The position numbers were made by a program, and so were the translations under genes. Positions 5,105 to 60,922 of a DNA stretch of 64,000 nucleotides are shown piece after piece. Every line of letters starts with the position of its first letter. Positions within the stretch are counted from its first letter, which is position 1. Source of the DNA: Bdellovibrionota bacterium (GTDB lineage: Bacteria; Bdellovibrionota_C; UBA2361; JBIKUX01); NCBI GenBank assembly GCA_044347345.1, contig JBIKUX010000005.1, positions 47,228 to 111,227 of the forward strand, read 5' to 3'. Below the pieces are notes generated by a model. The model was not told the DNA's origin. It made no database searches and was given only the letters and a program-made list of their open reading frames with translations.

Positions 5105-5527
5105 TTAAGCAGCGTTTGGACTAAGTGGCTCAGATAACTCATCTTGAGCTAAGTTATCTCGGGCAACAGAGCTAGACTGCTCTGTAGTGCTCAGTGTTTT
5201 CCCATCAGTCGTTTTCCCGTCAGCGCGAGGATCTACTGAACCTCCACTAACACTCCCTAGTAAAGCATTTGCTCGGTCTGCTAGAGCTTCTTTTTGTTTT
5301 AACGCAGCATCTTCGCTCCTCTTGCGAAGCTCTTCATGAGACATGAGATACACCAAACCATCTGCAATTTCTCTTAGAGACACAACAACAGCTTTGTTCC
5401 CTCTCGCATCAGGGATAAGCACCTTTCCGCCGTGGAGCAACTGTTTGGTACGCTTTGCTGCTAATTGTACAAGAGCAAAACGATTTCTCTCATGAGCTAG
5501 ACAATCTTCAACGGTAATTCGCGCCAT
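5105..5527 (-). CDS. rpoZ: RNA polymerase omega subunit with C-terminal extension
   Basis: [10 protein letters not shown]...[16 protein letters not shown]...SLREIADG. Confidence 0.95.
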
Positions 5528-5694
5528 ATCTATCCAACAAAGTAATAATAGAAGTCATACCAGATTAGCAAGTATCTAACATTTTCGAAAGCCTTTAGTA
5601 CCTTAAAAGATTGAGAGGGTTTTTCCACCATTTATTTTTGGCAATTATATTAAACAGAAGCTCTAGGGAAACTAATTAAAAACGATAGCTAATT

Positions 5695-7629
5695 TTAATC
5701 GCGCGTAGCGTCTTGGCGCTTGATAAAGCCCGGACGGCCATTCTTTGAGGCAAGCTTTAGCCACTCCCCGTTAAGTCTCTCTACTCTCACTTTATCCCCG
5801 CGCCTCAAAATAGCCACAGGTGCTCCAAACGGTGAGGGCTTAGACATAACTTCAGTCGAGGTGAGGATGCGATAAAATCCAGCAGTAGTACCGGTTTTTA
5901 TCTCTGCTCTGTCAACAGTATCACTGTCACTGGTGTCATTAGACTCATTTCTAGCTAAAGGAAGGCGAATTTCCGGCGATTGATGCTCTGAACGAGCCAC
6001 TAACCGAGAAGTATTCTCTCGCCGGTTTATATAAGCGGTTGGAAAACTGCGAGGAGTTACTTTTTTAGTAGCTTTAAGCCCATCCGGTTCAATTGGTCCG
6101 TCAGTTCTAACCTTTTCCTTAATTTTACTTGCCTGCTGAGACTGCTGTAATGGGGTGCTGGTGCTCACCGTAGCTTCTGGAGGAGCAGAACCAGTCGGTA
6201 TCGCTTGAGCAACCAATGTTGAATTTACAGGGGCAAGATTAGAGTTACTTACAGTATTTTCTCCGCTGGTGTCAGAACTGCTTACAGGATTAACCTCAGA
6301 GTCGTTTGATGCTAAATTTTCTTGAGGTTTATTCCTATCCTCAGCTACCTCGTAGTAGACCAAATCAAGTGCCGTATCAAATGAGGCTCTCTTTACGTTA
6401 GGAAGAGCTAATTTAGGATTATCTGGCACAAAAACAGTTGCGATAGAAGGAGAAGCCTCAGTTGTGACCGTAAGCCTCTGCAACCACCACCAAATTCCAA
6501 TAAAACCGAGAAGCGTTGGTATAGCAAAAAATAGAAGCTTGCCTAATCCTCCTCCCTCAACGCTTCGTCCTCCTACGCCCCTTTCCGTCACTTCACTTCT
6601 TCTAGTTGAGCCGTATTGAATAGCTGGTGTCAATGGACGCCAACTGGCAGCAAGTCTCGCTTGTGTATCATCTTCATGTGCATCCTCAACAGTCGGAGGT
6701 AAAATATTTGTGCTTGGCTCTGCAACCAGTTGAGCTGCGACCGGTTGAGCTGCGACCGGTTGAAACTGGACATCATCGCCAATAATTTTGAGTTTTTGAA
6801 GTACATCAAACAAATAACTTGGTATTTCATTTTGTGACACAAAACCGCTCAATTTTGCGCTAAGAGCAACAAGATTAGAGGGATTTGGCTCTGGTGCTCT
6901 GCTTTGATCTTTGGTTAAAAGATCGGCAACCTCCTTGAGAGAGGCAATAACAATTCGTAATACTAGTTCTTCTCGAGGAGTAGGACTTATCTCCCCTTTT
7001 TTAAGGTAAAAATCCTCCGAAGAGAGAGTTTCAGTATCGGGAGCTATAGATGGATCTAAAAGAGCGTTATTATGAAGATGGTCTGTTTCAAAATTATCAC
7101 ATAAGGATTTTATTAAATCCTCAGATAGTGACTCCAGTGGCCCTGCTAAGATTGAAATTGGGACACCATTGGTTAGAAGCTGCGCCCTAATCCACCAACA
7201 GCGAGCCTCTTGATTCAGACTAAGAATCTTAAGTCCGGTATTACCGTCAGGTAGCTCTTCACTTAAAGTTACACTCTGAGCTTCAATTTGACTTGAAGTT
7301 TGTGCGTCATCTTTTAATTCTGGTAAGCTGGTGGGTCTTGGCTCCGGGGCACTACTAAGACTACTTGGCACTTCTTTAATTGCCATCTCACACCAAGTGA
7401 TTAGGGAAGACCAATCCTTTCTTATGGCAAATTCAGCTGGTGAGCCAAGGATAATATTGCTAAGTGTATTATTATTAAATGCCTTAGCTGGATTTGATTC
7501 GTTAGCTTGGGGATGGTTATCAATATCAGAACCATTTGGGATAGAACCAACCCTAATAAGTTCCTCCAAACCTAAGTCAACCCTACCTCTGTCCTCGTCC
7601 CTACCTCTGTCCTCATCGCCATCTATCAT
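5695..7629 (-). CDS. Hypothetical bitopic membrane protein with disordered linker and C-terminal SH3b-like domain
   Basis: Single TM (LLFFAIPTLLGFIGIWWWL); C-terminus VAILRRGDKVRVERLNGEWLKL...GFI resembles bacterial SH3. Confidence 0.65.
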   Translation of the reverse strand: MIDGDEDRGRDEDRGRVDLGLEELIRVGSIPNGSDIDNHPQANESNPAKAFNNNTLSNIILGSPAEFAIRKDWSSLITWCEMAIKEVPSSLSSAPEPRPTSLPELKDDAQTSSQIEAQSVTLSEELPDGNTGLKILSLNQEARCWWIRAQLLTNGVPISILAGPLESLSEDLIKSLCDNFETDHLHNNALLDPSIAPDTETLSSEDFYLKKGEISPTPREELVLRIVIASLKEVADLLTKDQSRAPEPNPSNLVALSAKLSGFVSQNEIPSYLFDVLQKLKIIGDDVQFQPVAAQPVAAQLVAEPSTNILPPTVEDAHEDDTQARLAASWRPLTPAIQYGSTRRSEVTERGVGGRSVEGGGLGKLLFFAIPTLLGFIGIWWWLQRLTVTTEASPSIATVFVPDNPKLALPNVKRASFDTALDLVYYEVAEDRNKPQENLASNDSEVNPVSSSDTSGENTVSNSNLAPVNSTLVAQAIPTGSAPPEATVSTSTPLQQSQQASKIKEKVRTDGPIEPDGLKATKKVTPRSFPTAYINRRENTSRLVARSEHQSPEIRLPLARNESNDTSDSDTVDRAEIKTGTTAGFYRILTSTEVMSKPSPFGAPVAILRRGDKVRVERLNGEWLKLASKNGRPGFIKRQDATRD

Positions 7630-7876
7630 GACTCCATTACCTCTTCAGTCTTTATTACCTCTACAGTCTTTTCCTCAATCCCTCTGGTAAGTTTTTTTCA
7701 CAGACTCCCCTTATTTTTTATTTTTATTCTTAAGAGGCGAGTGCTTTCTATAAAAATGGAGGCAATCCCAACAAATTCAAAACGCTTTAAAGAGATTTTT
7801 TACCTTTTGATGTCACCCCAGTTCATCAGCTATACTTTTTTATTTCAAGCAGAATTCATAATAAGTTTATAATATT

Positions 7877-8383
7877 GTGCTTAATAAATATTTTTTCATT
7901 TTAATCATCTGCGCTTTAATCATCTGCGCTACATTCCCAAGCTGTACAACGACTGAGGTCATAAGCAGATTGCCAAACACCAAATCAGATAAATTCGGTA
8001 CCAATAAGTGGCTCACTGCTTATTCATCAAATAAATTTTCTCGGTCTGTTGGGTTTCAATACCTTTTTGGAATAATACCGTTTGGCAAAGTGAATCTCAA
8101 AGACCCTTTAGAAGATATTACAATATCAGTACAAGGATTGGGAGCGTTGCCGGACCCATTAAACACCGAGATAACACTAAATGCTTTTGATCTATTTTTT
8201 ACCCGCTCTCTAAGTTGCAAAATTTCAACCGTTCTAATTTGGAAAAATATTCCAAGGCTCGTGCAAGTAAACACCTCTCACCAAGAATGGAGTGCCTTTG
8301 GATTTTCTCTTGACCTAAGTCGCGCTTGGACCAGATGCTTATGGAATTTGCAAAAAAAAGCTGCTCAAGCCATCAAAAGGTGA
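7877..8383 (+). CDS. Putative lipoprotein
   Basis: Hydrophobic N-terminus ending FPSC (lipobox-like); 168 aa. Confidence 0.55.
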   Translation: MLNKYFFILIICALIICATFPSCTTTEVISRLPNTKSDKFGTNKWLTAYSSNKFSRSVGFQYLFGIIPFGKVNLKDPLEDITISVQGLGALPDPLNTEITLNAFDLFFTRSLSCKISTVLIWKNIPRLVQVNTSHQEWSAFGFSLDLSRAWTRCLWNLQKKAAQAIKR

Positions 8384-8540
8384 ATTTTTCGCTTTGGCTG
8401 CCCTAACGAAATACGACCTCTGATTTCGTAGAATTGCACTCTCTTAGAATTGCGCTTTCTAGGGAGCTTCTTATATCATTGCAAAAGAAACACCAGCTTT
8501 TACATTTGGTTTTCTAACTTTCATTTTTGGGGAATTTCTA

Positions 8541-10568: not shown

Positions 10569-10682
10569 CTGGTGGCTATGGTTACGGTAGTTAGGTTTGT
10601 GGCTAACTCACTGACATAACTCAGTGACGATGAAACGAATCTGAGATACAGCTCAGTACATCCTTACAGGTACCTCGTAATT

Positions 10683-12028: not shown

Positions 12029-13351
12029 TTATTGAGGTTCAAATGTTCGCGCAAAAATCTCCTCAACGTGTAGAAAATGTCGTTCTAATGAAAATACTTT
12101 ACGCAACTCTTCTGGTGTGAGCAAAGAAGATATTGTAGCATCTTTCTCAATTAACTCTTGAAAACTCGCTACATTACCGGCATCCTGAACCGAACCGGCA
12201 TCCCGAGCAGTCAGAGCGTATTTTTGCACTAAAGCATATGCGTCTTCTCTTGACATACCTTTATCAGCGAGACTTATCAACAGAGACCCTGAAAATATGA
12301 GCCCCCCTGTAAGATCGATGTTAGACCTCATCTTGTCATCATGAACAACTAGAGTCTCAATCAAATAAGCTACTCTGGCAAGCGCAAAATCAAGAAGCAC
12401 GCATGCATCAGGAGCAATTATGCGTTCAACAGAGCTATGACTGATATCCCGCTCATGCCATAGAGCGACATTTTCAAGAGCACTGACAGCATAGCCCCTT
12501 ATTAGTCGAGCAAGCCCTGAGACGTTCTCTGAAAGTATCGGATTTTTCTTGTGTGGCATGGCAGAAGAGCCTTTCTGTGCTTTACCAAAGCCCTCCTCTA
12601 CCTCAGCTACTTCAGTTCGCTGCAAATGGCGAATCTCTGTTACCATGCGCTCCAAAGAGCTAGCTATCAAAGCAAGTGACGTAAAATAAGCCGCATGACG
12701 GTCTCTATGAACAATCTGAGATGGAACAAGCTCTGGCGTTAGACCAAACTGTCTTAAGACTTTTGCTTCAACGCTTGGTGACACTGATTGATAAGTGCCA
12801 ACTGCCCCAGCAATTTTCCCCGTAGCTACTTCTTGAGTGGCTTGATTAAAGTGATGTCTTCTCCGAAGTAATTCTGCATAAAACGACGCTAACTTAAGAC
12901 CAAAGGTAGTAGGCTCAGCGTGGATTCCATGACTCCTTCCAATCGTCGGTAAATACTTGTATTCAATGGCTCGGCGATGCAATACGGATAAGAGCTTTTC
13001 AAGCCCTTTATCAAGGAGTGTAGATGCTCGCGTAAGTTGAATTGCAAAAGAAGTATCTAGAAGATCGCTTGAGGTCATTCCTCGATGAAGAAATCTTGCT
13101 GGCTGACCAGCCTGCTCAGCTATAGCGGTAAGAAAGGCGATAACATCGTGCTTAACCTCGGCCTCAATCTCAACAATGCGCTCAATATCAATTTTAGCTT
13201 TGCCTCTAATCTGAGAAGCTGCCCCCTGTGGAGCAACTCCCTCTTCTTCCATGGCCTGAAGCGCCGCAAGCTCCACATCAAGCCAAATCTGATACTTGGT
13301 TTCTTCTGACCAAATAGCCACCATTTCAGGGCGAGAATACCGCTTAATCAT
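12029..13351 (-). CDS. purB: Adenylosuccinate lyase
   Basis: MIKRY, KHDVIAF, GRSHGIHAEPTTFG, GSSAMPHKKNP. Confidence 0.97.
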   Translation of the reverse strand: MIKRYSRPEMVAIWSEETKYQIWLDVELAALQAMEEEGVAPQGAASQIRGKAKIDIERIVEIEAEVKHDVIAFLTAIAEQAGQPARFLHRGMTSSDLLDTSFAIQLTRASTLLDKGLEKLLSVLHRRAIEYKYLPTIGRSHGIHAEPTTFGLKLASFYAELLRRRHHFNQATQEVATGKIAGAVGTYQSVSPSVEAKVLRQFGLTPELVPSQIVHRDRHAAYFTSLALIASSLERMVTEIRHLQRTEVAEVEEGFGKAQKGSSAMPHKKNPILSENVSGLARLIRGYAVSALENVALWHERDISHSSVERIIAPDACVLLDFALARVAYLIETLVVHDDKMRSNIDLTGGLIFSGSLLISLADKGMSREDAYALVQKYALTARDAGSVQDAGNVASFQELIEKDATISSLLTPEELRKVFSLERHFLHVEEIFARTFEPQ

Positions 13352-15639: not shown

Positions 15640-16827
15640 CTAGTTAAATTCTTTTAATAACATTCTATGCCATTCGTGAAAAAACCGCTCAGGAGAAAAC
15701 TGCCGAGAACGCTCTATGCAAGCAGAAGTAGATATATGCCCTTCTGCTTGCTCGATAAAATAACGTATCGCTACAATAAGGTGTTCAACACAAACTCTGC
15801 CCACTTTTGCATTAAGTGACGCTCTAGGCATCAGTACTCCGGTAGTTAAAGGATTAAACGGGGGAGATGTACCAGGAGCTACACCAATTACGCTCTCAGC
15901 TACTCCACCTCTATTGACACCAATTACCGGGCGACCAGCCGCCATCACCTCTACTGGTATCATGCCAAAATCTTCAATTGCCGGAAAAACCAAGGCACGT
16001 GAAAGACCGTAAACTTCAGCTAGCTCATTATCGCTAATACGACCAAAAAATGTGATGTTTTTCTTTGCTACTGACCTTAAAACCTTGGCATCTGGCCCAT
16101 CACCTACCACCCAAAGTGGCAAACCTAAAGTGTTAAATGCCTCAATAACTACCTGAGCTCCCTTATAAGGAACTAATGCCCCTGCAAAGAGAAAAGCTTC
16201 ACCTTGTTTCGGTTTGGTAGTACTCGGCTCTAGATTTACAGCCTCTAAATTTACCGGGGATTTGATCCAAGATGTATCCACAGGCGGATAAATTACTGAA
16301 GAATTCCTGCGATAAAAGCACCTGGCTCTGGCAGAAACAAATCTGCTTATAGACACAAGCTCATCTACTTTGGTACTACCGTTAAAATCCCACCTGCGAA
16401 GTGGTGCCAAAATTGGCCACAAAATATGCGAAGCGCACCGACCAAAATAAGCTTGTACTTGATCCCAGATGTACCTCATTGGTGTGAAAAGATACACTAT
16501 GTGGCGGGTTCCATGAGGTACTTTAACATTTTTTGCGGCCGCATGACTTAAAGATATCACTACATCATATTTGCCCGGCTCGATATTTATCGAGCGAACA
16601 GCTAGGGGAAATAATGGCAATAAACATCGGTAATATCTTTCAATTCTTGGAAGTTGTTGCAACCATGAAGTACCCCGCACATGCTCGTCTATCAATGAGC
16701 TCGTAGCACCTGGAAGATGAAAAAGCGAGTAAACGTGAGCGTCTGGAAATAGCGTCAAAAACTGCTCTAGGCAACGCTCTCCTCCTCGCATTCCGGTAAG
16801 CCAATCATGTATTAGTGCTACTCGCAT
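15640..16827 (-). CDS. Glycosyltransferase family 4
   Basis: HDWLTGMRGGE; EDFGMIPVEVMAAG (EX7E). Confidence 0.92.
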   Translation of the reverse strand: MRVALIHDWLTGMRGGERCLEQFLTLFPDAHVYSLFHLPGATSSLIDEHVRGTSWLQQLPRIERYYRCLLPLFPLAVRSINIEPGKYDVVISLSHAAAKNVKVPHGTRHIVYLFTPMRYIWDQVQAYFGRCASHILWPILAPLRRWDFNGSTKVDELVSISRFVSARARCFYRRNSSVIYPPVDTSWIKSPVNLEAVNLEPSTTKPKQGEAFLFAGALVPYKGAQVVIEAFNTLGLPLWVVGDGPDAKVLRSVAKKNITFFGRISDNELAEVYGLSRALVFPAIEDFGMIPVEVMAAGRPVIGVNRGGVAESVIGVAPGTSPPFNPLTTGVLMPRASLNAKVGRVCVEHLIVAIRYFIEQAEGHISTSACIERSRQFSPERFFHEWHRMLLKEFN

Positions 16828-16872: not shown

Positions 16873-18129
16873 CTATACAATTTGTAGTGCTGATTCATAC
16901 ACTCTTAAGGTCTGCTCCGATACAGAAGCAATGGAAAATCGTAATGAAGGAGGTTCTGGTACAGAGTCGCTGACCCAAGCACTAGCCAGAGCATCAGCTA
17001 GAGAAGAACTAGAAAAATCTCTCGCTACAGTATCTGCCTTCCCAAGCAGTTCAGTTATTGCTGGAACAGGTGTTGTCACTACCGGTACTCCAGCCGCATG
17101 CGCCTCAAGAACTGGAATACAAAACCCTTCTACGGTTGATCCCACCAAAAGTAATCTAGCTTTTTGATACAGGTGTTCAAACAAGTCAGATGGCAGAGCA
17201 CCATAAATTTTAATTATGCCCTTAGCACATGCATTATCAACAGCACTTAGTAAGGAGGGCGAAAGCTGCCTTCTCCATCCGTCATCTTTAAAGGCATACC
17301 CTGCCAAAGTAAGTGCGGCAGGAGAAGATAACGATGATGTGGTAGTAGAACACGCTGGCTCTAATAAACCACTATTTTTAGCCATTAAAAATGCTTCAAT
17401 AATTCTAGTTACCCCTTTATGAGGCTTACAATTTGATAAAACGGCAAGAATATCCGAGCGCTCTCTGAGAGGATAACCTCTAACAGCGCTATCATTATTA
17501 TCATCACCATCCGTGCTCCCATCTTTTTTAGCCGTACTGGCACAATTACCTTTATTTTTTGTCCATTCAATTTTTTCTGCTACTGAGCTTGGAGCGGCAT
17601 TAGGTATGAGATTAATTCTACGGCCACTAAAAGAAAAACTCCTACTGAGAGAACTCAATGTTTTTCTACTTGCTTCGCTCACTGTAATTATTTCATTTGC
17701 ACAAAATAGCGACCGAAGTAGTACAGGGCCTGTAATGAAGGGATAATACCACCGTTCAGGTGCTGAAAGATGAATAATATCGTGGATAGTAACTACTGAA
17801 GGTATTTGCATTCGAATTGGCAAAGGATAATGTGGGGTATGAAAGAGGTCCCACTGATTAGCAGTTATCTCTCTACCTAATTGCCAAAATTCTCCTAAAG
17901 AATAAGGACGATGAGATGTAGTTACGATGTTAACAGAGCGTTTACTAAATAACTCAGTGTATCCTTTCTCAGTGTGTTTTTTCTCAGTGTGTTTGTTGAC
18001 GAGAAGCGTCAAAGATACCCGAGCAAGGCATAAAGTGTTTGTAGTTAACCCTTCAATCAAACGCTCAAGATAAACCCCTATTCCACCATCACCTAGCTTT
18101 CTTGCATCAAGGAGTAAACGGATTTTCAA
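16873..18129 (-). CDS. Glycosyltransferase family 4
   Basis: GGIGVY, VVTIHD, KPHKG, EGFCIPVLE. Confidence 0.88.
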   Translation of the reverse strand: MKIRLLLDARKLGDGGIGVYLERLIEGLTTNTLCLARVSLTLLVNKHTEKKHTEKGYTELFSKRSVNIVTTSHRPYSLGEFWQLGREITANQWDLFHTPHYPLPIRMQIPSVVTIHDIIHLSAPERWYYPFITGPVLLRSLFCANEIITVSEASRKTLSSLSRSFSFSGRRINLIPNAAPSSVAEKIEWTKNKGNCASTAKKDGSTDGDDNNDSAVRGYPLRERSDILAVLSNCKPHKGVTRIIEAFLMAKNSGLLEPACSTTTSSLSSPAALTLAGYAFKDDGWRRQLSPSLLSAVDNACAKGIIKIYGALPSDLFEHLYQKARLLLVGSTVEGFCIPVLEAHAAGVPVVTTPVPAITELLGKADTVARDFSSSSLADALASAWVSDSVPEPPSLRFSIASVSEQTLRVYESALQIV

Positions 18130-18171: not shown

Positions 18172-19203
18172 CTAGTCGTTTACCGCTTGAGCAGAAGATG
18201 CTTGAGCCGAGGATATAGCTACAACGGTTTTATCATCTTCTACACCTTGACGATGAACATTTCTAACTACGTAAGTCCGGCGCTGTTGCGACTCATAATA
18301 GGTACGAGCCAACATTTCAGCTAAAAGCCCAAACACCAAGAATTGTAAGCCCATTAAGCAAAGCATCACTCCAAGTGATAAAAGCGGCCTGTTACCCATG
18401 GGAACATTTTGTACGAGCCGCTGCCAAGTCAAAAAAAACAGGAGAGCTATACCGCCACTACCCATAAATAGCCCTACACTACCAAATAAGTGGATGGGTC
18501 GTTTTGAGTATCCGAGAAGGAATTTTACAGTGATAAGATCAAGAATAACTCGCACTGTTCTGGAAATACCATACTTAGAGACCCCGTGCTGTCTTTCTCT
18601 ATGATTAACCGGCACCTCAACGATACGCGCTCCCAGCTCGTCAGCAAGAGCTGGAATAAATCTGTGCATCTCACCATAAAGCCGAATGCCGCGAGCAATA
18701 TCACCTCGCATTACTTTTAACGTGCAGCCGTAATCATGAAGATGAACCTTAGTTATAAAGGATATTAATCTGTTAGCTATCAGGCTGGGCACCTTACGAC
18801 TGATTAGGCGATCTTTGCGGTGTTTTCTCCATCCCGCTACCAAATCAGCACCACCTCTTAAAATCTCAACCATTTTCGGAATCTCTTTTGGGTCGTTTTG
18901 AAGATCACCATCAAGAGATACCACCGTTTCGTAGCGTGTATAATAAAAACCAGCGGCCATAGCGGCGGTTTGACCAAAATTGCGCCGAAACTCAACAACA
19001 ACCACAGATTTATCGACCTTAGCGACCTCAAGTAATCGCGTAAGAGTACGATCTGAGGACCCATCATCAACAAAAATGATCTCATAAGGTTCTGCTAATG
19101 ACTTAAGCACGTCACGAACCTCTTTATAGCAGTCAAACACATTGTCTTCCTCGTTATACACGGGAATTACTGCTGATATTCCTCGAGGCTCTAGTACCGA
19201 CAT
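18172..19203 (-). CDS. Glycosyltransferase family 2 (ArnC/polyprenol-phosphate sugar synthase-like)
   Basis: IPVYNEE, VDDGSSD, NFGQTAA, DGDLQNDP, two C-terminal TMs. Confidence 0.93.
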   Translation of the reverse strand: MSVLEPRGISAVIPVYNEEDNVFDCYKEVRDVLKSLAEPYEIIFVDDGSSDRTLTRLLEVAKVDKSVVVVEFRRNFGQTAAMAAGFYYTRYETVVSLDGDLQNDPKEIPKMVEILRGGADLVAGWRKHRKDRLISRKVPSLIANRLISFITKVHLHDYGCTLKVMRGDIARGIRLYGEMHRFIPALADELGARIVEVPVNHRERQHGVSKYGISRTVRVILDLITVKFLLGYSKRPIHLFGSVGLFMGSGGIALLFFLTWQRLVQNVPMGNRPLLSLGVMLCLMGLQFLVFGLLAEMLARTYYESQQRRTYVVRNVHRQGVEDDKTVVAISSAQASSAQAVND

Positions 19204-19424: not shown

Positions 19425-20282
19425 GTGTTTCCCACAATTATTTTAGCTGGTGTAGCGATATTTTTCTCAACCTCATATCTAGTAATTAAATCAACAAATT
19501 TGCCAGCGGTTACTTTTGCTTTATTTCGTGGTCTAGTGCCAACTATTCTTCTATGGTCTATTCCATCTGTAAGATCTGAGATCAAACGAAATTACTCCCT
19601 ACCCTTAATTTCACTCGGATTTTTAACAGCGCTTAGAATTTTTGCTTGGATCTCAGCGGCAAAACTTGCACCAATGGGGCTTGCATCAGTTGTGCTTTTT
19701 GTTTGGCCGGTATTTTTTGTTCTAGCAGATTCAATACGCCGCAAATCACCACCATCTTATACGGAATTTGGTGGAGCGCTTTGTGCATTTTTAGGGATAG
19801 CGATTGCTAGAGTAGGATTTCCAAGAGCTCTAACTACAGATGAATTTTTAGGATTAGTGCTAATATTTTTTGTCGCCATAGGCAATACATTTGTTTTGAT
19901 GGTTAACCGTTCTTTACAAAATCGAATTTCACCAGAGGTATTGCTATTTTATGACACAGCTCTAGTAGGGTTAATATTTCTCCCCTTTGCTGCTGAACCC
20001 ATTATTGCCGCATCTTGGCAAGATTTAAAGATGGCTCTTTTTTTTGGATTTGCTTATGGCTGCCTAGGTTGGTACCTGATGTTTCGTATCACCCAAACAC
20101 TTCCAGCTCACATTACTGCGTTTGTAATGTATCTTGAACCAGCCGCAGCGATTGTCTTTGGTTGGCTGTTTCTTGATGAGCCTCTTACTTTTATCACCAT
20201 CTTGGGAGGTCTTCTTTTAGCTTGTGGGGGCGTAATAACAAAACTACACTCTATTAAAAGTCTGGGCTCTGCCTCCAAGTAA
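19425..20282 (+). CDS. DMT/EamA-family transporter
   Basis: About 10 TMs in two repeats; YLEPAAAIVFGWLFLDE. Confidence 0.88.
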   Translation: MFPTIILAGVAIFFSTSYLVIKSTNLPAVTFALFRGLVPTILLWSIPSVRSEIKRNYSLPLISLGFLTALRIFAWISAAKLAPMGLASVVLFVWPVFFVLADSIRRKSPPSYTEFGGALCAFLGIAIARVGFPRALTTDEFLGLVLIFFVAIGNTFVLMVNRSLQNRISPEVLLFYDTALVGLIFLPFAAEPIIAASWQDLKMALFFGFAYGCLGWYLMFRITQTLPAHITAFVMYLEPAAAIVFGWLFLDEPLTFITILGGLLLACGGVITKLHSIKSLGSASK

Positions 20283-20312
20283 AATACCCCCAAGTAAAGT
20301 AAGAGTAGATAA

Positions 20313-21608
20313 CTATTGCTGGCGAGCTCTTGCTTTAGAATCTGTCAATAATTTCCAGATTAACTCCTCATACTTATCTGTGATTGAATCCCAACTATAC
20401 CGAGCTTTGGCTCTAATTTTTGCATGATGTCTGTATGCACCAAGTAGTTCAGCATTAGATAAGAGTCTGGGAAGCAGGTCAGCCAATTCAGAAAAATCAT
20501 TTTTCTGATAGTAAGCACCTGCTCCACCCAAAACTTCGTAGTGTTCAGGCACTCCATTTGCTACTATAGCGTTTCCGTAAACCATAGCCTCAAGAAGCGC
20601 TGGATGAGTACCACCCACCTCTGAGGCTTGAATATAAAGAGCAGGGTGAGTCCGGAGTTCTCGGTAAGCTGCTCCAAACTGATATCCAGTAAATATGACT
20701 TTATCGTTTGCGGCTTCTCTTAGTAACTTTTTGTAACTAGATGCATACGGGGCGTCTCCTACTACCACCAAAGGCATCTCAAGTCCTGAGGCTACATAAG
20801 CCTGAATCACACCCAAGGCATTATTCTCTGGCTCAAGGCGACCGACATACAAAAGATAAGCTCCAGATACTAATCCAAACTTAGCTAAAATATCTCCTGA
20901 GGGCACCGCCTCTTCCAGTGCACCGTAGTCGATATGAGTGCTGTCGCAATCGTAACGCGAGCAATAATACTGCTTAATAACAAGAGCATCAGTTACCACA
21001 ACTGATGCAAACTGCACCGAACACCATTCACCTAAACGATACCAAGCGCGACCAATAGAGCTCCACTTAGTCCGCTTTCGCTCTATTCCGTCTACATTTA
21101 TCGCTGTCGGAATGCCCGCTAAACGTGGAATACAAGCAAAGGGGCTTGTAGCGGCATTGCAGAGTATGATTACATCGGTGTCGCCTCGCATTGCTACATC
21201 TACAAGTGAACTAAATGCTGCAAGTGGAGTATCTAAATATTTGTGCCTGAGTGTAAAAGTTTTTCGGCACCGTATTCCACGGTACAAAGTCTCCGGGTAC
21301 AGAGACTGTGGATAACTAGACTGTGGGTACTTAGACTGTGGGTACTTAGACTGTGGGTACCAATCTTTCCGGTACCGCGACTCATCGCTAAAATTATCAT
21401 CAATAATATCAGATAAATACCTTCTACCGTATACCGTTACCGGATACCCCCTGGCCACAAGCTGAGAGCCAAGCTCCTCGGCAAATGTCTCGAAACCACC
21501 GTAACTAGCTGGAACTCCTCTAGTACCCATTATTGCTACACGGGGTCTCCAAACGGATTTCTTTAATAATAATTCCATCAAAAATCTATATTTAACCAAC
21601 TTAATCAA
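20313..21608 (-). CDS. GT-B glycosyltransferase (DUF1972-type N-terminus)
   Basis: MGTRGVPASYGGFETFAEE, NVDGIE, VGRLEPENN, EVGGTHPALLEAM. Confidence 0.9.
   Translation of the reverse strand: MIKLVKYRFLMELLLKKSVWRPRVAIMGTRGVPASYGGFETFAEELGSQLVARGYPVTVYGRRYLSDIIDDNFSDESRYRKDWYPQSKYPQSKYPQSSYPQSLYPETLYRGIRCRKTFTLRHKYLDTPLAAFSSLVDVAMRGDTDVIILCNAATSPFACIPRLAGIPTAINVDGIERKRTKWSSIGRAWYRLGEWCSVQFASVVVTDALVIKQYYCSRYDCDSTHIDYGALEEAVPSGDILAKFGLVSGAYLLYVGRLEPENNALGVIQAYVASGLEMPLVVVGDAPYASSYKKLLREAANDKVIFTGYQFGAAYRELRTHPALYIQASEVGGTHPALLEAMVYGNAIVANGVPEHYEVLGGAGAYYQKNDFSELADLLPRLLSNAELLGAYRHHAKIRAKARYSWDSITDKYEELIWKLLTDSKARARQQ
21281..21376. repeat. 15-nt tandem array (about 6 units) inside the GT gene
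   Basis: ggtacttagactgtg x2 exact plus diverged flanking units; encodes YPQSK YPQSK YPQSS YPQSL YPETL. Confidence 0.95.
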
Positions 21609-40354: not shown

Positions 40355-40793
40355 AGAGTGCTCCTTTAAACAGTCTATTGCTTAACAGTCTCTTGCTTGC
40401 TCGTAACAACAATGAGCTTTTGTTTTGATACGCAAACGCATCTTACCACTCATATGAGCTCCACTGAAGATAAGTAAATAACTCAGTAAAAAAGTAATTA
40501 AGAAGTTCCCTCTGAGCGGAAGATTTATCTACTATTGTTACTGCAGTCTAGCCCTTTTTATCTAGCAGACTTTTTAAAGAAAGTAACTTTTTAAATAATG
40601 GCGAATCAAAAAATCACTAATTTACTTCCGCCTCTAACTGAGCGAGACTTACTAATAAGTGATAACTTTTTAACAAAAATTTACAGAAAGTAACAATCAG
40701 CTTGCTCTAGGCTCTTGCGTCGGCCTCGTCATTCTGATTAGTTGAGGGTCGAAAAATAATCGTCGTTGCTTGGAATATTAGTGGAGTTCACTC

Positions 40794-41237: not shown

Positions 41238-41355
41238 ACATTAGACTTCATTTTTCAAAATTAGGTTGAGATTGCCTAACATAGCAAAAATACTTCTTTT
41301 TAGACCTAATATATTTTTGTGCAGTGGCAGTACTAATTCCTACTAAAAAGCTGCC

Positions 41356-41419
41356 AAGGCCTTACAGTAGCAAGGCCTTTCAGTAAAAAGGCCTTGCGGT
41401 AAAAAATCTTGTGGCAAAA
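41356..41419. repeat. 16-nt tandem array with palindromic AAGGCCTT core
   Basis: aaggccttacagtagc aaggcctttcagtaaa aaggccttgcggtaaa plus one decayed unit. Confidence 0.85.
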
Positions 41420-41466
41420 AAAGTAGTTGATGTGGTTTAACCTGCAAGCTCTACCAACTAAAAGCT

Positions 41467-43779
41467 GTGACTAAGAGACTGTGGGTAAATAGACTGTGGG
41501 TAAGAAACTACGTGTTAGAATCTGTGCCCCACTCAAAATTGCATTCCATACCATTTGGCTTCTCGCTTCCATTGTTCATCTTTGCAGCTCTCGCAACTTT
41601 TATAGCTCGTTTTGAATGTTTTGATCGAATCAATACTCACTCACTAAGCGGTACGTTAGGAGATGGGGGCATCTATTTATGGCTCTTATCCGTTGTGCCG
41701 CAAGCCTTAGATCCCGAAAATTGGTACAATGTTCCTGCCTTTTACCCTTACGGTCAGGCCTTAGCTTGGAGTGATAATTATATTCTACCCTCCCTGCTAT
41801 TAATGCTGCTAAGGTCATTTTCGACTCTTGCCCTACCCGTTCAATCACTAATTGTAGCACACAATGGTCTACTACTTGGGGCTACTGCTCTTACTGGTTG
41901 GTGTGTCAGTCGCCTGACTTTTCGTTTAACTGGCAGTTTACTACCAAGTTGTTACTCGTGTTTAGCCGTTATCTTCTGTCATTTTTTTATTGAGCATTTG
42001 GGTCATCCACAACTTCAGTATGGATTTTTTTTACCGCTATCGGCAGAAGTTGCTTTGCTGATAACGTCTGCATCGACATCAAAATCGGACAAAAAAGCTA
42101 CAAAGATACTGAGAGCTGTGCTCCTAGGTATAGTCGTTGGATGTGCCTTCCTAACCGCGGTATACTACGGAATTTTTTCAGCCTCTATTGCCATAATTAT
42201 CCTTCTTTGTTGGTTAGCAACTGCATTTAGTCGCCGTTGTATAGCTGAGCTAACTTATCTGGTCTTTGGAGGCATTCTCGGATTTTCTCCTTTTATCCCT
42301 TTTTTATTGCCTTATTTTGCTACCGAGGCAACTTTTGGACAAAGAAATCTTTACGAAGCTTATTACTTTTCAGCACATCTTTTATCTTATCTTTCAGCAG
42401 GACCGCTCCATACCTATTCTGGTATACTTGGAAAATCAACCTGGTCTCACAGTGAAGCACATCTGTCATTAGGAATTATAAGCCCAATTCTCCTTCTTTG
42501 GGGTGCAGTTTCAACAAACTATTTACATAAATATAAAATTGGAATAACCGTTTGCTTTGCTTCCTTAATGTTAGCACTTGCTACTAATATTCATGGCTTA
42601 GGAATTCCTAGTCTAAAAGTTGCAAGCGCATTTCTTGCATGGATAGCTCTTACAAGTGGTGTTTTTGTATTTATCCAAAGCCAAAAACTTACTAACTCAA
42701 ATTCCATCCATTTAGGGGCATTAACGCTAGTAATACTTACTTCAATTATTTTCTCATTAGGACCTCTTGGTAATCCAGTTAAAGGTGAACTCGCTTTAGG
42801 TCCATTTGCAGTAGCTCATCAATTCATACCTGGTATGGGGGGGATTAGAGCTGTAAGCAGATGGGGAGTGGTGGTATTAATCTTTTTACCTGTTATAGCT
42901 GCAGTCCTGGCTCACAGGGCTTATAAACAAATAGCCCTAGCAAAAACATACAAACGAGCCTTTTTTCAATATTTTTTTTGGTTATCCTTCATGATTCTAG
43001 TGTTTCTAGAGCAATACACCACAGGATACGGGAAAGGGATGGAAGAATTACCGAAGATTCCTCCCGTAGTACACAGTATGACAAGAAGTGAAAAAAATTC
43101 AGGAGCAATCATTTTTCTGCCGATGAGTCATCCTCTTAGCTCTACTGGAGAGATACTATCTTGGAGCGATTTTATTCGTCGAAATATCACCGCTATGAAC
43201 GCATCAGTTCACTTAAATATGCCTACTGTTAATGGATATTCGGGAGTAAAAACAAAAATTATGCGAGACTTACCAAGAAGAACTCGCTTGTTTCCTGACG
43301 AAAGAAGCTGTACAGCTCTTCAAGAAATATCAGGATTAAAATTTGTAGTTTGGGAACAACACAATAAACTCGTGATACCAAAATCTTTACCATCATGCCT
43401 TAGCTATCTAGGTCATGACGATACCGGCTATCATCTATTTAAAATAAAAGATGAGGTTCCGCTAAATGGTGAACGCACCGTAATAGCCTCTCCAACATCA
43501 ACAAGTATTTTACTACAATTTAGTGGCTGCAACGCAGTTACTATCCAAGAATCAATTAATAAAAACGTCATTTCGACTAGCGATCTTAATCTAGTTGGTC
43601 ATGCTACAAAAAGAGTTATTTGCCCATCTAAAATTACATCAACAAAAATGGCACCGCGCTATTGGCAAATTAAACCTAGCTCATCAAAGCCAGAAAATAC
43701 CTGTTTTTTCTCAGTAACAAAAGCCCCATCTGTGCCCTATTCGATTGATGAAATTGCTGGTAGATGCTTTTTGGATTAA
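41467..43779 (+). CDS. Polytopic membrane protein, probable GT-C-fold glycosyltransferase (YfhO/PMT-like)
   Basis: More than 10 TMs; N-terminal loop GD..IYLW...[27 protein letters not shown]. Confidence 0.65.
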
Positions 43780-45830: not shown

Positions 45831-45953
45831 AGCACCTTACTTAAACAGCACCTTGCTTAAAACCACAACTTCCCAAAATTGTTACTTTTTTTTAATTAAA
45901 ATGCAAGCTTAGTTGAGTATAAAAAAATCTTAGTAAGAATTATCCATCAAAAT

Positions 45954-51725: not shown

Positions 51726-53720
51726 ATGAAGGTTTCACTGGAAGACATACTTCACATCATTGGAACCAGCATTATTGCCGGTGGCATAACTATACTACTT
51801 AGCGAATCAAATCCTCAGGCAGTCCTAACGATTACTGCAGTAACTAGCCTTATTGCCGTTCTTGAAATACTTCTCTATCTCCGTTTTAAAAAAATCTCTA
51901 AACACCTTGGTCTACCAGTGATTCATCTTCCCTTTGATTACGGTGCTTCTCGCGTACTACGTCAACTTACGCTACTTGATCGAGCAATGTTCTTAGGTAT
52001 GGAAAAGCGGAAGATAAAAAGTAATCGGAGCCTAGCAGCTACTTTTGACTTTATGGTTAAAAGTGCTTATTTCCTCATTCCGGCAGATCATATTGAAATT
52101 ACATTGAGCGACGGCCAACAGGAGTATCCTCAGACTTCGTATCTTCGTAGTAGTCAATTTAAACAATCAAGAATGATGGAAAAAATTCTTGCCGAGGGAA
52201 TACAAAGAGTAGAAGCTGAAACTCCCATAGAGCTATCAGGTGCTAGATTAGGAAGTATTAAAGTTGTATTTCCCGCTCTCTATACTCCAACAAAGGCTGA
52301 CAAGGTTTTACTCGATATTCTGGCCCACCAAGCAATGGTAGCAATACTGAATAGCAGATTCTCGCAAAAGTTACTTGCTATAAAACAAGTTTCAGAGCAG
52401 CTACAACAAGCTCAAACTGGCTTTCTTGCAAATCTAAGCCATGAACTAAGAGGGCCTATCGGATTTTTATTAAACGCAACAGAGCTCCTCGAAGACGGTC
52501 TGTACGGTGAAATGAATCAAGGACAATTAGAACTTCTGCAAATGATGAAGCGAAGCGGTGACCACCTTCTTGATTTAATGAATGACGTTCTTGATTTTGC
52601 AAAGGCTGAAAGTGGTAAAACTACGGTAGATCCAGTACACAATGACATTAACGAGCTCCTAAAGGATATGGTAGGTGTAGTCAGGAAAGATGCTGAAGAC
52701 AAGGGGCATCGGCTAGTGATGATTCCTCACCAAGATTCTCCAACCGTAGTATGCGACCGTCGTCATATAAGGCAGATACTCATAAATATTCTTACCAATG
52801 CCGTAAAGTACACACCCAACAAAGGGGGGCGTATTGAGATTTGGGCCGATCGACTAAATGACGGTAATATCCGCATTCACATACGTGACAATGGCGTCGG
52901 GATTGCTCAAGAAGACTTTAAAAAAGTTTTTGCTCCCTTTGAACGACTTAATAACCCTTATTCAAAAGCTCAATCAGGTAGTGGAATTGGCATGAGCTTA
53001 GTAAAGCATTTAGTAGAGTTAAATAACGGAAAGATAGACTTTGAATCTCAAGTGGGACAAGGAACTCATTTTTGGGTTGAGTTTCCAGAGAAACAAGAGG
53101 GAGTACCAACAACTGTTCAATTAATCGAAGAGGCTATTTCTCTCGATGGAAACGGAAAGACTATTATTCTTTTCAGTGAGAATAAGGGTGAAAGGACAAT
53201 AATTAATAGATATTTAAGTCATATTGGATTCGATGTACGAGAGGCAATCTCAGCTCAAGGAGCAGAATTTGTTTTAGAGCGAGAGTCCGTGAAACTCGCT
53301 GTAATTAACGGTTCACTCGTTAATCCAGAAGTAGAGCAACTTTTACAGATTCTTCGGTCGAGACCACAAAGTGAAGGCATTCCAGTTATCACAGTTAGTA
53401 GTGAAGCGATGAGATGGGAAGTTAAAAAATACCTAAGAGCAGGAGTAGACAGATATTTAGCAAAGCCTCTTAGCCTTGAACAATTAGGATCAGCTTGTTG
53501 TAAAATGATAAAAACCGAAAATCTTGGTAATGTAATCCCACGCGCCTTATTACAAAAAGGAGCTACCTACAAAGAAATAAGTGAATCAGAGGCCGAAAAA
53601 ATTTCAAGCGCTGGTCGAAGAATACGCAAGCCCCCAGGCTATAACAAACAGGAACAATATCATCAGGAACAAGATCTAGAACCTTTACCCCTTGATGACT
53701 ATTTTCATGACCAGAGTTAA
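51726..53720 (+). CDS. Hybrid sensor histidine kinase with degenerate receiver domain
   Basis: 2 TMs, H-box LSHELRGP, N-box NILTNAVKYT, G1 DNGVGI, G2 GSGIG, C-terminal receiver-like domain ending YLAKP. Confidence 0.92.
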   Translation: MKVSLEDILHIIGTSIIAGGITILLSESNPQAVLTITAVTSLIAVLEILLYLRFKKISKHLGLPVIHLPFDYGASRVLRQLTLLDRAMFLGMEKRKIKSNRSLAATFDFMVKSAYFLIPADHIEITLSDGQQEYPQTSYLRSSQFKQSRMMEKILAEGIQRVEAETPIELSGARLGSIKVVFPALYTPTKADKVLLDILAHQAMVAILNSRFSQKLLAIKQVSEQLQQAQTGFLANLSHELRGPIGFLLNATELLEDGLYGEMNQGQLELLQMMKRSGDHLLDLMNDVLDFAKAESGKTTVDPVHNDINELLKDMVGVVRKDAEDKGHRLVMIPHQDSPTVVCDRRHIRQILINILTNAVKYTPNKGGRIEIWADRLNDGNIRIHIRDNGVGIAQEDFKKVFAPFERLNNPYSKAQSGSGIGMSLVKHLVELNNGKIDFESQVGQGTHFWVEFPEKQEGVPTTVQLIEEAISLDGNGKTIILFSENKGERTIINRYLSHIGFDVREAISAQGAEFVLERESVKLAVINGSLVNPEVEQLLQILRSRPQSEGIPVITVSSEAMRWEVKKYLRAGVDRYLAKPLSLEQLGSACCKMIKTENLGNVIPRALLQKGATYKEISESEAEKISSAGRRIRKPPGYNKQEQYHQEQDLEPLPLDDYFHDQS

Positions 53721-53731
53721 AATGCCTGAGG

Positions 53732-54316
53732 TTGAAATCTTGTATAAACCCTATGAACCGAGTCTCAGCAGATTTAATGATATCAGATTTAATTACAGCT
53801 TTAATAACTAAAATCGATTCAGACCCAACGAGAGAGGGACTCCGTGATTCTCCAAAACGTATAGCTCATTTTTACTCTGAATGGATTACAACGGGAGATC
53901 CTAATTTTCCAGTTACTACCTTTGATTCAGAATCGTTAGACGAGATGGTAATAGTTCGAGAGATTCCTTTCTATTCATTATGTGAACACCATATGCTTCC
54001 TTTTTTTGGCACTGCATCCGTTGCTTATATCCCTAGCACCAAAATAGTTGGTCTCTCAAAAATACCGAGAATTGTCCAACACTATGCGCGGAGGTTACAG
54101 AACCAAGAGCGAATGACTCAACAGATAGCCGACTTCTTGGAGGAAATAATAAAACCTAAAGGAACGGCAGTAACATTGCGAGCTAGACACTTATGCACTG
54201 AAATGCGCGGTATTAAATCTATTGGAAATGAAACAATCACCTCTAAATTAAAAGGAGTACTTAAAACAAATCCCGCAACACGCGCTGAATATTTTCAGTT
54301 AACTAGCGCTACCTAG
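53732..54316 (+). CDS. folE: GTP cyclohydrolase I
   Basis: REGL..SPKR, SLCEHHMLPF, GLSKIPR, RRLQNQE, HLCTEMRG. Confidence 0.96.
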   Translation: MKSCINPMNRVSADLMISDLITALITKIDSDPTREGLRDSPKRIAHFYSEWITTGDPNFPVTTFDSESLDEMVIVREIPFYSLCEHHMLPFFGTASVAYIPSTKIVGLSKIPRIVQHYARRLQNQERMTQQIADFLEEIIKPKGTAVTLRARHLCTEMRGIKSIGNETITSKLKGVLKTNPATRAEYFQLTSAT

Positions 54317-54355
54317 TTGCAACCCCTGCTCTAGTTGCAACAGGTTAATCAGAAT

Positions 54356-59534: not shown

Positions 59535-60871
59535 GCAACTTTGCTGTTTTGGGAGCTGGCCCAATGGGTCTTGCCGCCGCTCATTCTCTAGTTGAAGCTG
59601 GTCACAAAGTGACATTATTTGAAGCTGACGATCGTCTAGGCGGAATGTCAGCCTCTTTTGACTTTGATGGTCTTTCTATTGAGCGGTATTACCACTTTTT
59701 ATGCAAAAGTGACTATCCGCTATTTGCTTACGCAGAGAGGTTAGGATTATCGGATAAGATTAAATGGCAAGCCACTACCATGGGCTATTATTTCTCTGAG
59801 AAGGTTCATCCTTGGGGAACACCATTAGCTCTTCTTGCTTTTCCTCATCTTGATTTAATCACAAAGCTCAGATACGGCCTGCATGTTTACCGAACTAGTC
59901 GAATTACTGACTGGAGCATCCTTGAAGATGTAAACGCCAAGGATTGGATTGAGCGATGGGTAGGTAAAAAGGGCTACGACGTTCTGTGGAAAGGACTTTT
60001 TGATCTAAAGTTTTTTGAGTATTCTGAAGAGCTGTCTGCCGCTTGGATTGGCACTCGTATTAAACGAGTAGGTACATCGCGTCGCAATCCATGGACTGAA
60101 GAGCTTGGATATATTGAGGGCGGCTCTGAAGTGCTCATGCAAGCCATCGGCAAAGCTATTAGTAACCAAGGCGGTACAATTCGTCTAAATCAACCGGTAA
60201 GTGAAGTAGTGGTGCTTGGGGGGCGAGTAGCTGGAGTGCGGACGGCTGAAGGCTTTCTACCTTTTGATGGAGTGCTGTCTACTGTACCGCTTCCATATTT
60301 ACCAAGATTAATACCGCAGCTACCTCTGCGTGAAAAAGAGCAGATTCTTGCAATCAAGAACATCGGTGTAGTGTGTGTCATTCTTAAACTTTCGCAACCC
60401 CTAACACCTCATTTTTGGCTTAATGTAAGAGATTCAAACATAGCCATACCTGGCTTAATTGAATTTTCAAACTTACGTTCCTTTGGTGCGGGTAATCACA
60501 TTGTTTACTTACCATACTATATGCCTCAAACACACCCTAAGTTTAGGGCTCCCGAGGATTGGTTTTACCTTGAAGCATGCAAATATTTAGGGGCTATTGA
60601 GCCTCGGTTTAAAACTGACTGGATAAAAGCAGCTCATTTTCATAGATACCAGTATGCACAAGTGGTATGCCCACCCGGCTTTGCTCAAACCTTACCTAAT
60701 ATGGAAAGTGAGATTAACGGACTATTTTACGCTGATACCTCTTATTACTATCCAGAAGATCGCTCGATGTCTGAAAGTCTCAGGCTTGGATTAAAGCTTG
60801 GCTCACTCAGTGCATCGTGGGCTGAAGAATTAAACGGACAACAACGGCATCAAAGAGAAGCTAGTGGATAG
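59531..60871 (+). CDS. FAD-dependent oxidoreductase (amine oxidase/protoporphyrinogen oxidase-like)
   Basis: VLGAGPMGL, FEA..RLGG, IERYYHF, YYPEDRS; ATGA overlap with the epimerase gene. Confidence 0.88.
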   Translation: MSNFAVLGAGPMGLAAAHSLVEAGHKVTLFEADDRLGGMSASFDFDGLSIERYYHFLCKSDYPLFAYAERLGLSDKIKWQATTMGYYFSEKVHPWGTPLALLAFPHLDLITKLRYGLHVYRTSRITDWSILEDVNAKDWIERWVGKKGYDVLWKGLFDLKFFEYSEELSAAWIGTRIKRVGTSRRNPWTEELGYIEGGSEVLMQAIGKAISNQGGTIRLNQPVSEVVVLGGRVAGVRTAEGFLPFDGVLSTVPLPYLPRLIPQLPLREKEQILAIKNIGVVCVILKLSQPLTPHFWLNVRDSNIAIPGLIEFSNLRSFGAGNHIVYLPYYMPQTHPKFRAPEDWFYLEACKYLGAIEPRFKTDWIKAAHFHRYQYAQVVCPPGFAQTLPNMESEINGLFYADTSYYYPEDRSMSESLRLGLKLGSLSASWAEELNGQQRHQREASG

Positions 60872-60922
60872 TTTAAGGTGGAGATAGTTTTAAATTTTGA
60901 TCTAATTATTTCCTACTTCAAA

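Follow-up and report, generated by a model that had tools for sequence, protein, structure and literature searches.

Bacterial variable-number tandem repeat (VNTR) and contingency loci change by slipped-strand mispairing, have broad unit-length spectra and usually carry many copies at few loci. In the Borg elements of Methanoperedens, as far as the accessible part of the report describes them, repeat units inside open reading frames (ORFs) are all divisible by three, as are 14-38% of the intergenic ones; the repeats are perfect, without single-nucleotide polymorphisms, A-rich and often flanked by partial repeats that were proposed as seeds, and they were analysed as arrays of at least 3 units and at least 50 nt, with a load of ~50-76 regions per 0.66-1.1 Mb (PMC9879509). 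Direct repeats of 15-17 bp, 16-17 bp in 67 examples, are given in the available text for the targets of the ISTde1 subgroup of the IS1202 family of insertion sequences (IS), a subgroup reported there from many phyla including Deltaproteobacteria (10.1101/2022.12.17.520857). In eukaryotes, small tandem duplications have been tied to fill-in at breaks with complementary overhangs (PMC8355091). Here we analyse a 64-kb window (the whole stretch of DNA studied, positions 47,228 to 111,227 of contig JBIKUX010000005.1) from the chromosome of an uncultured Bdellovibrionota bacterium, in which tandem arrays with a unit of 15-18 nt recur within genes and between them.

The duplicated patch is 15-18 nt long, with a mode of 15-16 nt. 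A clean 15-18-nt signature of this kind was not found described in open-access papers and preprints. In-frame tandem repeats as such are already known; it is the narrow, clean length class that appears to be new.

Duplications of 15-18 nt are far above chance

The original prediction, made from the sequence of this window, had listed more than 20 independent head-to-tail duplications. All 25 of its positions hold a head-to-tail repeat of the period assigned to them, 18 with a match of at least 85% over one unit, four with at least 78% but below 85%, and three weaker (Table 1). It had overlooked two arrays, one at 338 in the mutL linker and one at 20272 across the stop codon of an EamA-type transporter gene.

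We scanned the window for sites at which at least 85% of one period matched the next period over one unit, with two sets of 100 controls each, local codon-block shuffles and third-order Markov sequences (expected counts are given in this order). Thirteen sites were observed at period 15 (0.14 and 0.09 expected), five at period 16 (0.01 and 0.03) and three at period 18 (0 in both controls). A single period-21 site (0 and 0 expected) lies in an acidic low-complexity ORF that is repetitive throughout. No site in the window reached this threshold at periods 11, 13, 14, 17, 19, 20 or 22-45, where at most 0.59 was expected for each. Expected counts were 0.07 and 0.05 for period 13, 0.18 and 0.23 for period 14, and 0 and 0.01 for period 17; periods 13-14 are therefore detectable and truly empty. 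Nor did periods 10-14 as a whole show any excess over the controls in the window, and at a threshold of 75% period 13 gave 4 sites versus 5-5.8 expected. The 21 sites at periods 15, 16 and 18 correspond to 20 arrays, because 41354 and 41372 lie in one array.

Exact 10-mers recurred nine times at distance 15 (0.13 expected) and four times at distance 18 (0.07 expected), and exact 8-mers five times at distance 16 (1.3 expected). TRF independently recovered the same arrays among 45 rows, of which 12 had period 15, three period 16 and two period 18. At the protein level, a scan for older 5-residue repeats gave just a small excess, with 34 versus 27 expected at offset 5 and 9 versus 3 at offset 6, and contributes little. 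A longer-period class, indicated by an excess of 8-mers at distance 36, was rejected, as these were scattered weak matches that formed no arrays.

The duplications are thus real and far above chance. Their units are confined to a narrow, intrinsic range of 15-18 nt; the one period-21 site apart, lengths of 13-14 nt and of 19 nt or more are empty. The narrow unit length of the original prediction is thereby upheld. The weak sites 12176 and 54313 are probably real, given the excess of 10-mers at distance 18, and the sites 10604 (13 nt) and 60867, which on their own are inseparable from chance, may be chance matches.

Reading frame decides which lengths survive in genes

ORFs span 57,614 nt of the window and intergenic DNA 6,386 nt. 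Thirteen of the 20 arrays with at least 85% identity lie fully in ORFs, six are intergenic and one runs across a stop codon. All 13 ORF-internal arrays have a unit that is a multiple of three (11 of 15 nt and two of 18 nt), as had been proposed for this window. Between genes the unit is chiefly 16 nt (4 of 6 arrays, plus one of 15 and one of 18 nt), so that multiples of three make up 2 of 6. The contrast is significant for this strict set (Fisher p = 0.004) and also when the weaker arrays are added (17/17 versus 3/8, p = 0.001). Arrays are denser between genes than within them, with 9.4 versus 2.3 per 10 kb. This shows that the reading frame decides which lengths survive in genes.

Five arrays (338, 6720, 27360, 30032 and 35148) have homology-supported coding sequence on either side, and another five (7577, 7897, 17962, 21313 and 41472) lie at predicted ORF starts. 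Between copies, changes fall at codon positions 1, 2 and 3 in 16, 17 and 27 cases, respectively. Over 123 codon pairs, 31 differences are non-synonymous and 14 synonymous; the new peptides are therefore under weak constraint. The exceptions are SSAQA x2 and DLDED x3, whose copies differ by synonymous changes alone.

Arrays consist of whole, unrelated units with clean ends

In the window, the matched length of the arrays modulo their period was mostly -3 to +1, with +3 in one multi-copy array; in the 25 rows from relatives it was 0 in eight and +1 in three. Partial copies at the array ends are therefore absent, and the arrays of the window and of the relatives consist of whole-number copies without a flanking partial repeat. 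No short direct repeat or partial copy was seen at array ends in the window or in the relatives' rows. Among the perfect arrays, the number of bases of junction homology is 0 at 7900 in the window, and 0, 1, 0 and 1 at L036 16228, L045 2618, L037 2521 and L043 19428 in the relatives. The exact array 7900 has one extra matching base.

The copies range from exact to decayed, as had been noted before. Identity goes from 100% down to about 70%: it is 100% at 7900 and in the inner pairs 6735 and 21318, which are the only three window arrays to hold an exact pair, and 67-94% in the others. About a third of the arrays have at least three copies, often with an older copy on one side, and the rest are mostly two-copy. 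The copy numbers first given for two of the larger arrays need qualification: of the six copies claimed at 21281 four are good and two decayed, and of the four at 35135 three are good and the fourth decayed.

The claim that most units are unrelated in sequence holds, with one pair excepted. The arrays 21303-21360 and 41476-41503 share 13 nt and are 85% identical over 34 nt; opposite strands of them are translated, giving KYPQS and RLWV in two unrelated ORFs. The pair may have arisen by the copying of an array, or it may reflect a motif at the DNA level close to the starts of two genes. A motif shared among units was tried and rejected: the top 7-mer, ACAGTCT, occurs in four arrays, and 71 of 300 random sets reach at least four. 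On the plus strand the arrays contain 26% A and 31% T, compared with 31% A and 28% T for the window, and they are not A-rich. No strong bias was found on either strand.

Coding arrays lie in insertions, linkers and tails

Alignment with orthologues, suggested earlier as a way to confirm that the repeats are insertions, placed two arrays (PstS and LivG) in insertions and two (MutL and RpoZ) in a linker or tail that cannot be aligned. The PstS array adds 11 residues relative to the closest relative (75% identical in the alignment, 71% by BLASTP), and its region falls within a longer insertion that is wholly missing from more distant orthologues. The LivG array lies inside a 22-aa insertion that is lacking in five orthologues of 46-48% identity. 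In the LivG of a 78%-identical relative (P0122), other short repeats, YCYC and GRGRGRGRG, occupy the same site, which was therefore struck independently in two lineages.

In MutL, the array region is the interdomain linker, which is unalignable with relatives. RpoZ (window 5105-5527) has 140 aa, with the omega domain at about residues 1-66 followed by a lineage-specific tail that carries the array; most of its relatives align over about residues 1-72 of 140, and two reach 100-110. The FolE array sits at the edge of the conserved domain, as FolE models begin at residues 16-19. Judged from such alignments, the surviving coding arrays sit in linkers, loops, insertions and termini.

Related genomes carry the same signature at lower density

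For comparison we used ~20 kb from each of 79 other genomes. The window has 3.3 arrays of 15-18 nt per 10 kb (64 kb), whereas 57 loci of the same clade (886 kb) have 0.28 and 19 outgroup loci (312 kb) 0.10; the latter are three 15-nt arrays, with none of 16-18 nt. Two 50-kb stretches of E. coli K-12 contained no arrays of 15-18 nt. In the 57 clade loci, the numbers of arrays at periods 13 to 18 were 3, 4, 12, 4, 5 and 4, with none at periods 19-24, and the nine arrays of 16-17 nt compare with ~0.55 expected. The outgroup spectrum falls steadily from period 10 (three at period 15, none at 16-19, two at 20). In the relatives, long ORFs contain just one of the four arrays of 16 nt and not a single one of the five of 17 nt. 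Exact arrays also occur in relatives: L043 19428 (x3.0), L036 16228 (x2.0), L045 2618 (16 nt, x2.0) and L037 2521.

In a SpoT tree of 76 sequences (FastTree, local support values alone; loci L047, L048, L051 and L059, which gave short matches, were left out), the window sits on a long branch and has L038+L032+L034 as its sister group (local support 99). Arrays are scattered over this tree, with five in 13 kb in L045, four in L056 and two each in L055, L027, L036 and L044. The sister clade of the window, i.e., its three nearest sampled relatives, has no arrays in 40 kb. The trait thus occurs throughout the clade at a low level and is far more pronounced in certain lineages. This qualifies the original description of the process as lineage-specific: the three nearest sampled relatives have no arrays, but further members of the same Bdellovibrionota clade show clean 15-18-nt duplications at about one-tenth of the density. 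When the flanks of the relatives' arrays were cross-aligned in search of pre-duplication alleles, they gave only gap-ridden matches of ~70-75% identity.

A distant Bdellovibrionota bin, L011 (SpoT 54% identical, 32% G+C), has 70 TRF rows in 22 kb (1-22139), with periods of 9-39 and often many copies; its sister L010 has few tandem repeats. The repeats of L011 look like a different, broader phenomenon.

Origin of the duplications

We put at about even the chances that a mutational process, long active in this Bdellovibrionota lineage, has left the arrays as its scars, cleanly duplicating a fixed 15-18-nt patch head to tail, probably by fill-in of staggered breaks. The process would begin when each strand is broken once, the two points lying about one and a half helical turns from each other. 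Fill-in of both overhangs followed by rejoining would then duplicate exactly the intervening DNA. Once two copies were present, ordinary slippage could add a third to a sixth, and frameshifting events of 16-17 nt would be purged from genes. Fill-in and rejoining between breaks at a fixed distance is favoured because the size window, the clean ends and the unrelated units fit it. Staggered-cut fill-in had been offered from the outset as an example of such a process; it agrees with copies that come in whole numbers and with junctions free of microhomology, from which we infer it. The eukaryotic system mentioned above is similar, in the part of its description available, in that its duplications are small and clean and their size equals the distance between the opposite-strand breaks; it differs in being eukaryotic, in involving Pol alpha-primase and in that no fixed length is given there.

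Several observations weigh against this origin. Genes for a nuclease, a transposase, Ku or LigD are missing from the 64-kb window, the sole part of the genome examined, and we know of no bacterial repair pathway with a 15-18-nt ruler. Because about a third of the arrays have at least three copies, a second process, slippage, must be assumed. Neither twofold symmetry nor a boundary consensus, as might be left by a cutting enzyme that acts as a dimer, was found in the units (25 of 105 symmetric pairs are complementary, with 26 expected), decayed arrays could still hide 1-2 nt of junction homology, and the sample comprises the window and ~20 kb from each of the 79 other genomes. Somewhat short of an even chance, in our estimate, is the broader possibility that the clade harbours an undescribed DNA transaction with a 15-18-nt ruler, which would produce clean micro-duplications across the whole chromosome and so continuously seed 5- or 6-residue repeats in loops, linkers and termini, those of core enzymes included. 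The agent could be a staggered-nicking enzyme, a transposase or integrase with a long stagger whose empty sites remain as scars, or a novel pathway of repair.

A replication fault is a less probable source, and an unlikely one overall: a nascent strand, or a displaced Okazaki or repair flap of roughly fixed length, would re-pair out of register and be sealed, often so because of a lineage-specific weakness in flap or single-strand exonuclease activity. Models of slippage or flaps depend on a short direct repeat at the junction and yield a wide range of sizes that become rarer as length increases. In the present arrays, no partial flanking copy is seen, periods 10-14 lack an excess and the spectrum stops sharply beyond 18, and for the want of both the junction repeat and the falling spectrum ordinary slippage is disfavoured as the origin. 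The arrays of 3-6 copies with layered ages (6720, 17953, 21281 and 35135) are nevertheless what slippage is expected to produce, and low-level presence over most of the clade fits an inherited property of replication or repair. L011 is full of tandem repeats of many periods, and repeat-prone replication therefore exists in the phylum. The patchy distribution on the SpoT tree (arrays in the window, L045, L055/L056 and others, with nothing in the sister clade of the window) fits the gain and loss of a mobile element. An element of the ISTde1 subgroup, or an integrase of similar stagger, may have inserted and later left, with the copies of its 15-17-bp target duplication staying abutted. As far as the source describes it, ISTde1 has the sole known bacterial ruler we found that matches the 15-16 nt of the window and the 15-17 nt of the relatives, which makes empty-site footprints a concrete rival, and clean ends and unrelated units agree with target duplications. 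We nonetheless regard it as distinctly improbable. Elements with TGT ends as a rule transpose by copy-out-paste-in, so that the donor site keeps its element. No insertion with 12-30-nt direct repeats and inverted ends was found in the window and the 79 loci (1.33 Mb), where the best terminal match, 14/25, is at chance level; this absence from contigs is weak evidence, since short-read bins often break at insertion sequences. There was likewise no transposase in the 45 window ORFs or in 13 ORFs scanned with Pfam. The 18-nt arrays (three strong and two weak in the window, four in relatives) exceed 15-17 bp, at least three copies in about a third of the arrays are unexpected from target duplication alone, and ~20-25 events per 64 kb would demand very heavy traffic through genes.

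Selection for function, without any special mutational process, would mean that intergenic arrays serve as operator or RNA elements and that coding ones provide useful peptide repeats of 5 or 6 residues. Some arrays invite this reading: 21303 and 41476 share their 13 nt on opposite strands, as a DNA-level motif would, array 7636 duplicates a ribosome-binding-like motif, the units of array 41355 contain a palindrome, and the copies of SSAQA and DLDED have kept their residues. The remaining units are unrelated, however, Rfam gives no match anywhere in the window, copy differences are mostly non-synonymous and the arrays sit in variable linkers and tails. Selection also leaves unexplained why coding and non-coding arrays have a common length, and why it is 16 nt outside and 15 nt inside genes, and we hold it to be very unlikely. 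An assembly or sequencing artefact, such as overlapping ends joined unmerged, would have the narrow length mirror a software parameter, and the source is probably metagenome-derived, since all relatives are bins. Yet the copies have mostly diverged, the frame is kept in 13 of 13 ORF arrays versus ~5 expected under the intergenic length mix, the same lengths occur in independent bins from other studies, and the relatives' proteins differ at the same loop, PstS in one and LivG in another. We rejected this explanation on the divergence between copies and the preservation of frame, and consider it barely credible.

Host, gene content and catalogue of arrays

The window has a G+C content of 38-43% and a negative GC skew in 15 of 16 4-kb windows, and contains no tRNA genes. 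Its 45 long ORFs are typical bacterial chromosomal genes, including mutL, an HtrA-type protease gene, spoT/relA, rpoZ, purQ, purB, a polysaccharide glycosyltransferase cluster, the liv and pst transporter operons, cysE, lolA, ftsK, ilvD, mltA, folE, two M16 peptidase genes and a sigma-54 activator gene; eight of the 45 have no family match. The best relatives of SpoT (62-70% identity) come exclusively from uncultured Bdellovibrionota or 'Deltaproteobacteria' bins, and the host is an uncultured Bdellovibrionota bacterium.

Some further features of the window lie apart from the arrays. At 47172-49872, a tyrosine recombinase gene lies immediately upstream of an ORF for a P-type ATPase (497 aa). 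The match of this ORF to the family model stops after about the first 470 of 755 positions, and ~500 nt of non-coding DNA come next; the ATPase is probably what truncation has left at a former site of integration. At 29082-31331, one 749-aa ORF combines a LivK-like substrate-binding domain (21-376) with a LivH permease (443-749). At 21743-25535, a gene for a coupling protein of the VirD4/TraG type (832 aa) and a coiled-coil ORF of 409 aa adjoin the polysaccharide glycosyltransferase cluster, and no other conjugation genes were found in the window. The 12-mer AATATCACCGCT occurs exactly at 540, 25044, 30204 and 43183 and with one mismatch at 47043, always on the plus strand; these five occurrences, in unrelated genes, compare with 0.24 expected, and none of 100 shuffles reaches five. 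It was not found in any of the 79 related loci. The 12-mer resembles the over-represented oligomers of the uptake-sequence, Chi or KOPS type, with a strand bias and a seeming restriction to this species.

The arrays are listed in Table 1. Array 41149 is ambiguous because the neighbouring sequence is itself repetitive, and the repeat of 15 nt at 41392 belongs to the 16-nt array 41355, as its fourth and decayed unit.

Table 1 Tandem arrays of the window. The last column gives the position in the original prediction and the match over one unit
Position	Unit and copies	Location	Units and matches	Original position; match
338..368	15 nt x2	MutL interdomain linker	VVDSS/IVGSF; 14/16 matches, 2.07 copies	
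5196..5223	15 nt x2	RpoZ C-terminal tail	12/13 matches	5196; at least 78%, below 85%
6720..6763	15 nt x3	644-aa protein, no assigned family	QPVAA x2 exact, then QLVAE; 27/29 matches, 2.93 copies	6721; at least 85%
7581..7614	18 nt x2	Codons 3-18 of the ORF of the 644-aa protein	EDRGRD/EDRGRV; 16-nt exact repeat	7581; at least 85%
7636..7671	18 nt x2	Directly upstream of the 644-aa ORF start	94%, 2.0 copies; GAGG ribosome-binding-like motif in each unit, minus strand	7636; at least 85%
7900..7930	15 nt x2, exact	Near start of 168-aa ORF	LIICA x2; 100%, 2.1 copies	7900; at least 85%
8429..8460	16 nt x2	Intergenic (0% in ORF)	14/16 matches, 2.00 copies	8429; at least 85%
10604..10628	13 nt x2	Intergenic	11/13 matches; may be chance	10604; at least 78%, below 85%
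12176..12211	18 nt x2, decayed	purB	TARDAG/SVQDAG; 14/18 matches, 10-nt exact core	12176; weaker
16228..16254	15 nt x2	GT4 glycosyltransferase	PVNLE/AVNLE; 11/12 matches	16228; at least 78%, below 85%
17953..17994	15 nt x3	Second GT4 ORF, near N-terminus	NKHTE/KKHTE/KGYTE; 24/27 matches, 2.8 copies	17953; at least 85%
18185..18214	15 nt x2	GT2 glycosyltransferase, last residues	SSAQA x2, synonymous differences alone; 13/15 matches, 2.00 copies	18185; at least 85%
20269..20298	15 nt x2	Across stop codon of EamA-type transporter gene (37% in ORF)	13/15 matches	
21281..21360	15 nt, 4 good and 2 decayed copies	Third GT4 ORF, N-terminal part	KYPQS; 40/43 matches	21281; at least 85%
27351..27394	15 nt x3	LivG	RAESW/REGSW/REISW	27360; at least 85%
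30034..30068	18 nt x2	Linker of fused LivK-LivH ORF	VSSFQD/VGSFQE; 94%	30034; at least 85%
34798..34841	16 nt x3	Fills pstS-pstC spacer	89%, 2.8 copies	34797; at least 85%
35135..35189	15 nt, 3 good and 1 decayed copy	PstS	AIEQK/ILEQK/IVEQN	35135; at least 85%
40369..40398	15 nt x2	Intergenic	93%, 2.0 copies	40369; at least 85%
41149..41194	15 nt x3	Acidic low-complexity ORF	DLDED x3; ambiguous	41151; at least 85%
41355..41421	16 nt x3, fourth copy shortened to 15 nt	Intergenic	Palindrome AAGGCCTT in each unit	41356; at least 85%
41476..41503	15 nt x2	Start of 770-aa ORF	13-nt exact	41474; at least 85%
45831..45861	16 nt x2	Intergenic	93%	45831; at least 85%
53649..53676	15 nt x2	Hybrid histidine kinase C-terminal tail	12/13 matches	53649; at least 85%
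53769..53793	15 nt x2	FolE codons 12-22	12/15 matches	53769; at least 78%, below 85%
54313..54348	18-nt-spaced 11-nt exact repeat	folE stop codon	12/18 matches; weak	54313; weaker
60867..60898	16-nt-spaced 8-nt repeat	Stop of FAD oxidoreductase gene	11/16 matches; not distinguishable from chance	60867; weaker

Comparison with known systems

Clean 15-18-nt duplications that recur in several members of a clade read as a mutational signature, which points to a specific putative enzyme activity. If this is confirmed on genomes and reads, the contrast between array-rich and array-poor sister genomes would offer a handle on that activity, and the arrays would be a natural example of peptide segments seeded in conserved proteins.

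With VNTR loci the arrays share the head-to-tail arrangement, the preserved frame in genes and a copy number that slippage can increase; slippage of the VNTR type probably explains the arrays of 3-6 copies. Unlike VNTR loci, they comprise many two-copy loci of one narrow length class, without a junction repeat. Instead of a spectrum that falls with length, the window and the related loci show a peak at 15-18, whereas the outgroup loci do fall. The target duplications of ISTde1, as the accessible text presents them, are direct repeats of 15-17 bp, mostly 16-17, produced by staggered strand transfer at seemingly unrelated targets; the 15-16 nt of the window and the 15-17 nt of the relatives would fit this range, and units of 18 nt would not. 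There, however, an element of ~1.5 kb with TGT ends separates the repeats, whereas here the copies abut, and the window and 1.27 Mb of relatives showed no element and no transposase.

The likeness to Borg repeats, drawn in the original prediction, stands for the frame rule, which is found in ORFs here too, and does not extend to perfection, A-richness or partial flanks. As in the Borgs, to the extent that the available description covers them, the arrays are pervasive, have arisen independently and add repeat peptides to proteins. Their density is of the same order, with ~8 arrays of at least 2.7 copies per 64 kb, the criteria applied to Borgs being stricter. In contrast to the repeats described there, the arrays of the window are mostly two-copy and decayed, are not A-rich and lack partial flanks, and their unit is confined to 15-18 nt, a narrowness not seen in the available description of Borgs. 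They also lie on a bacterial chromosome among housekeeping genes rather than on a giant linear extrachromosomal element of Methanoperedens. On these comparisons the resemblance to Borgs is superficial. If the signature is confirmed, it would represent a bacterial counterpart to the protein innovation that repeats drive in Borgs, though arrived at in another way.

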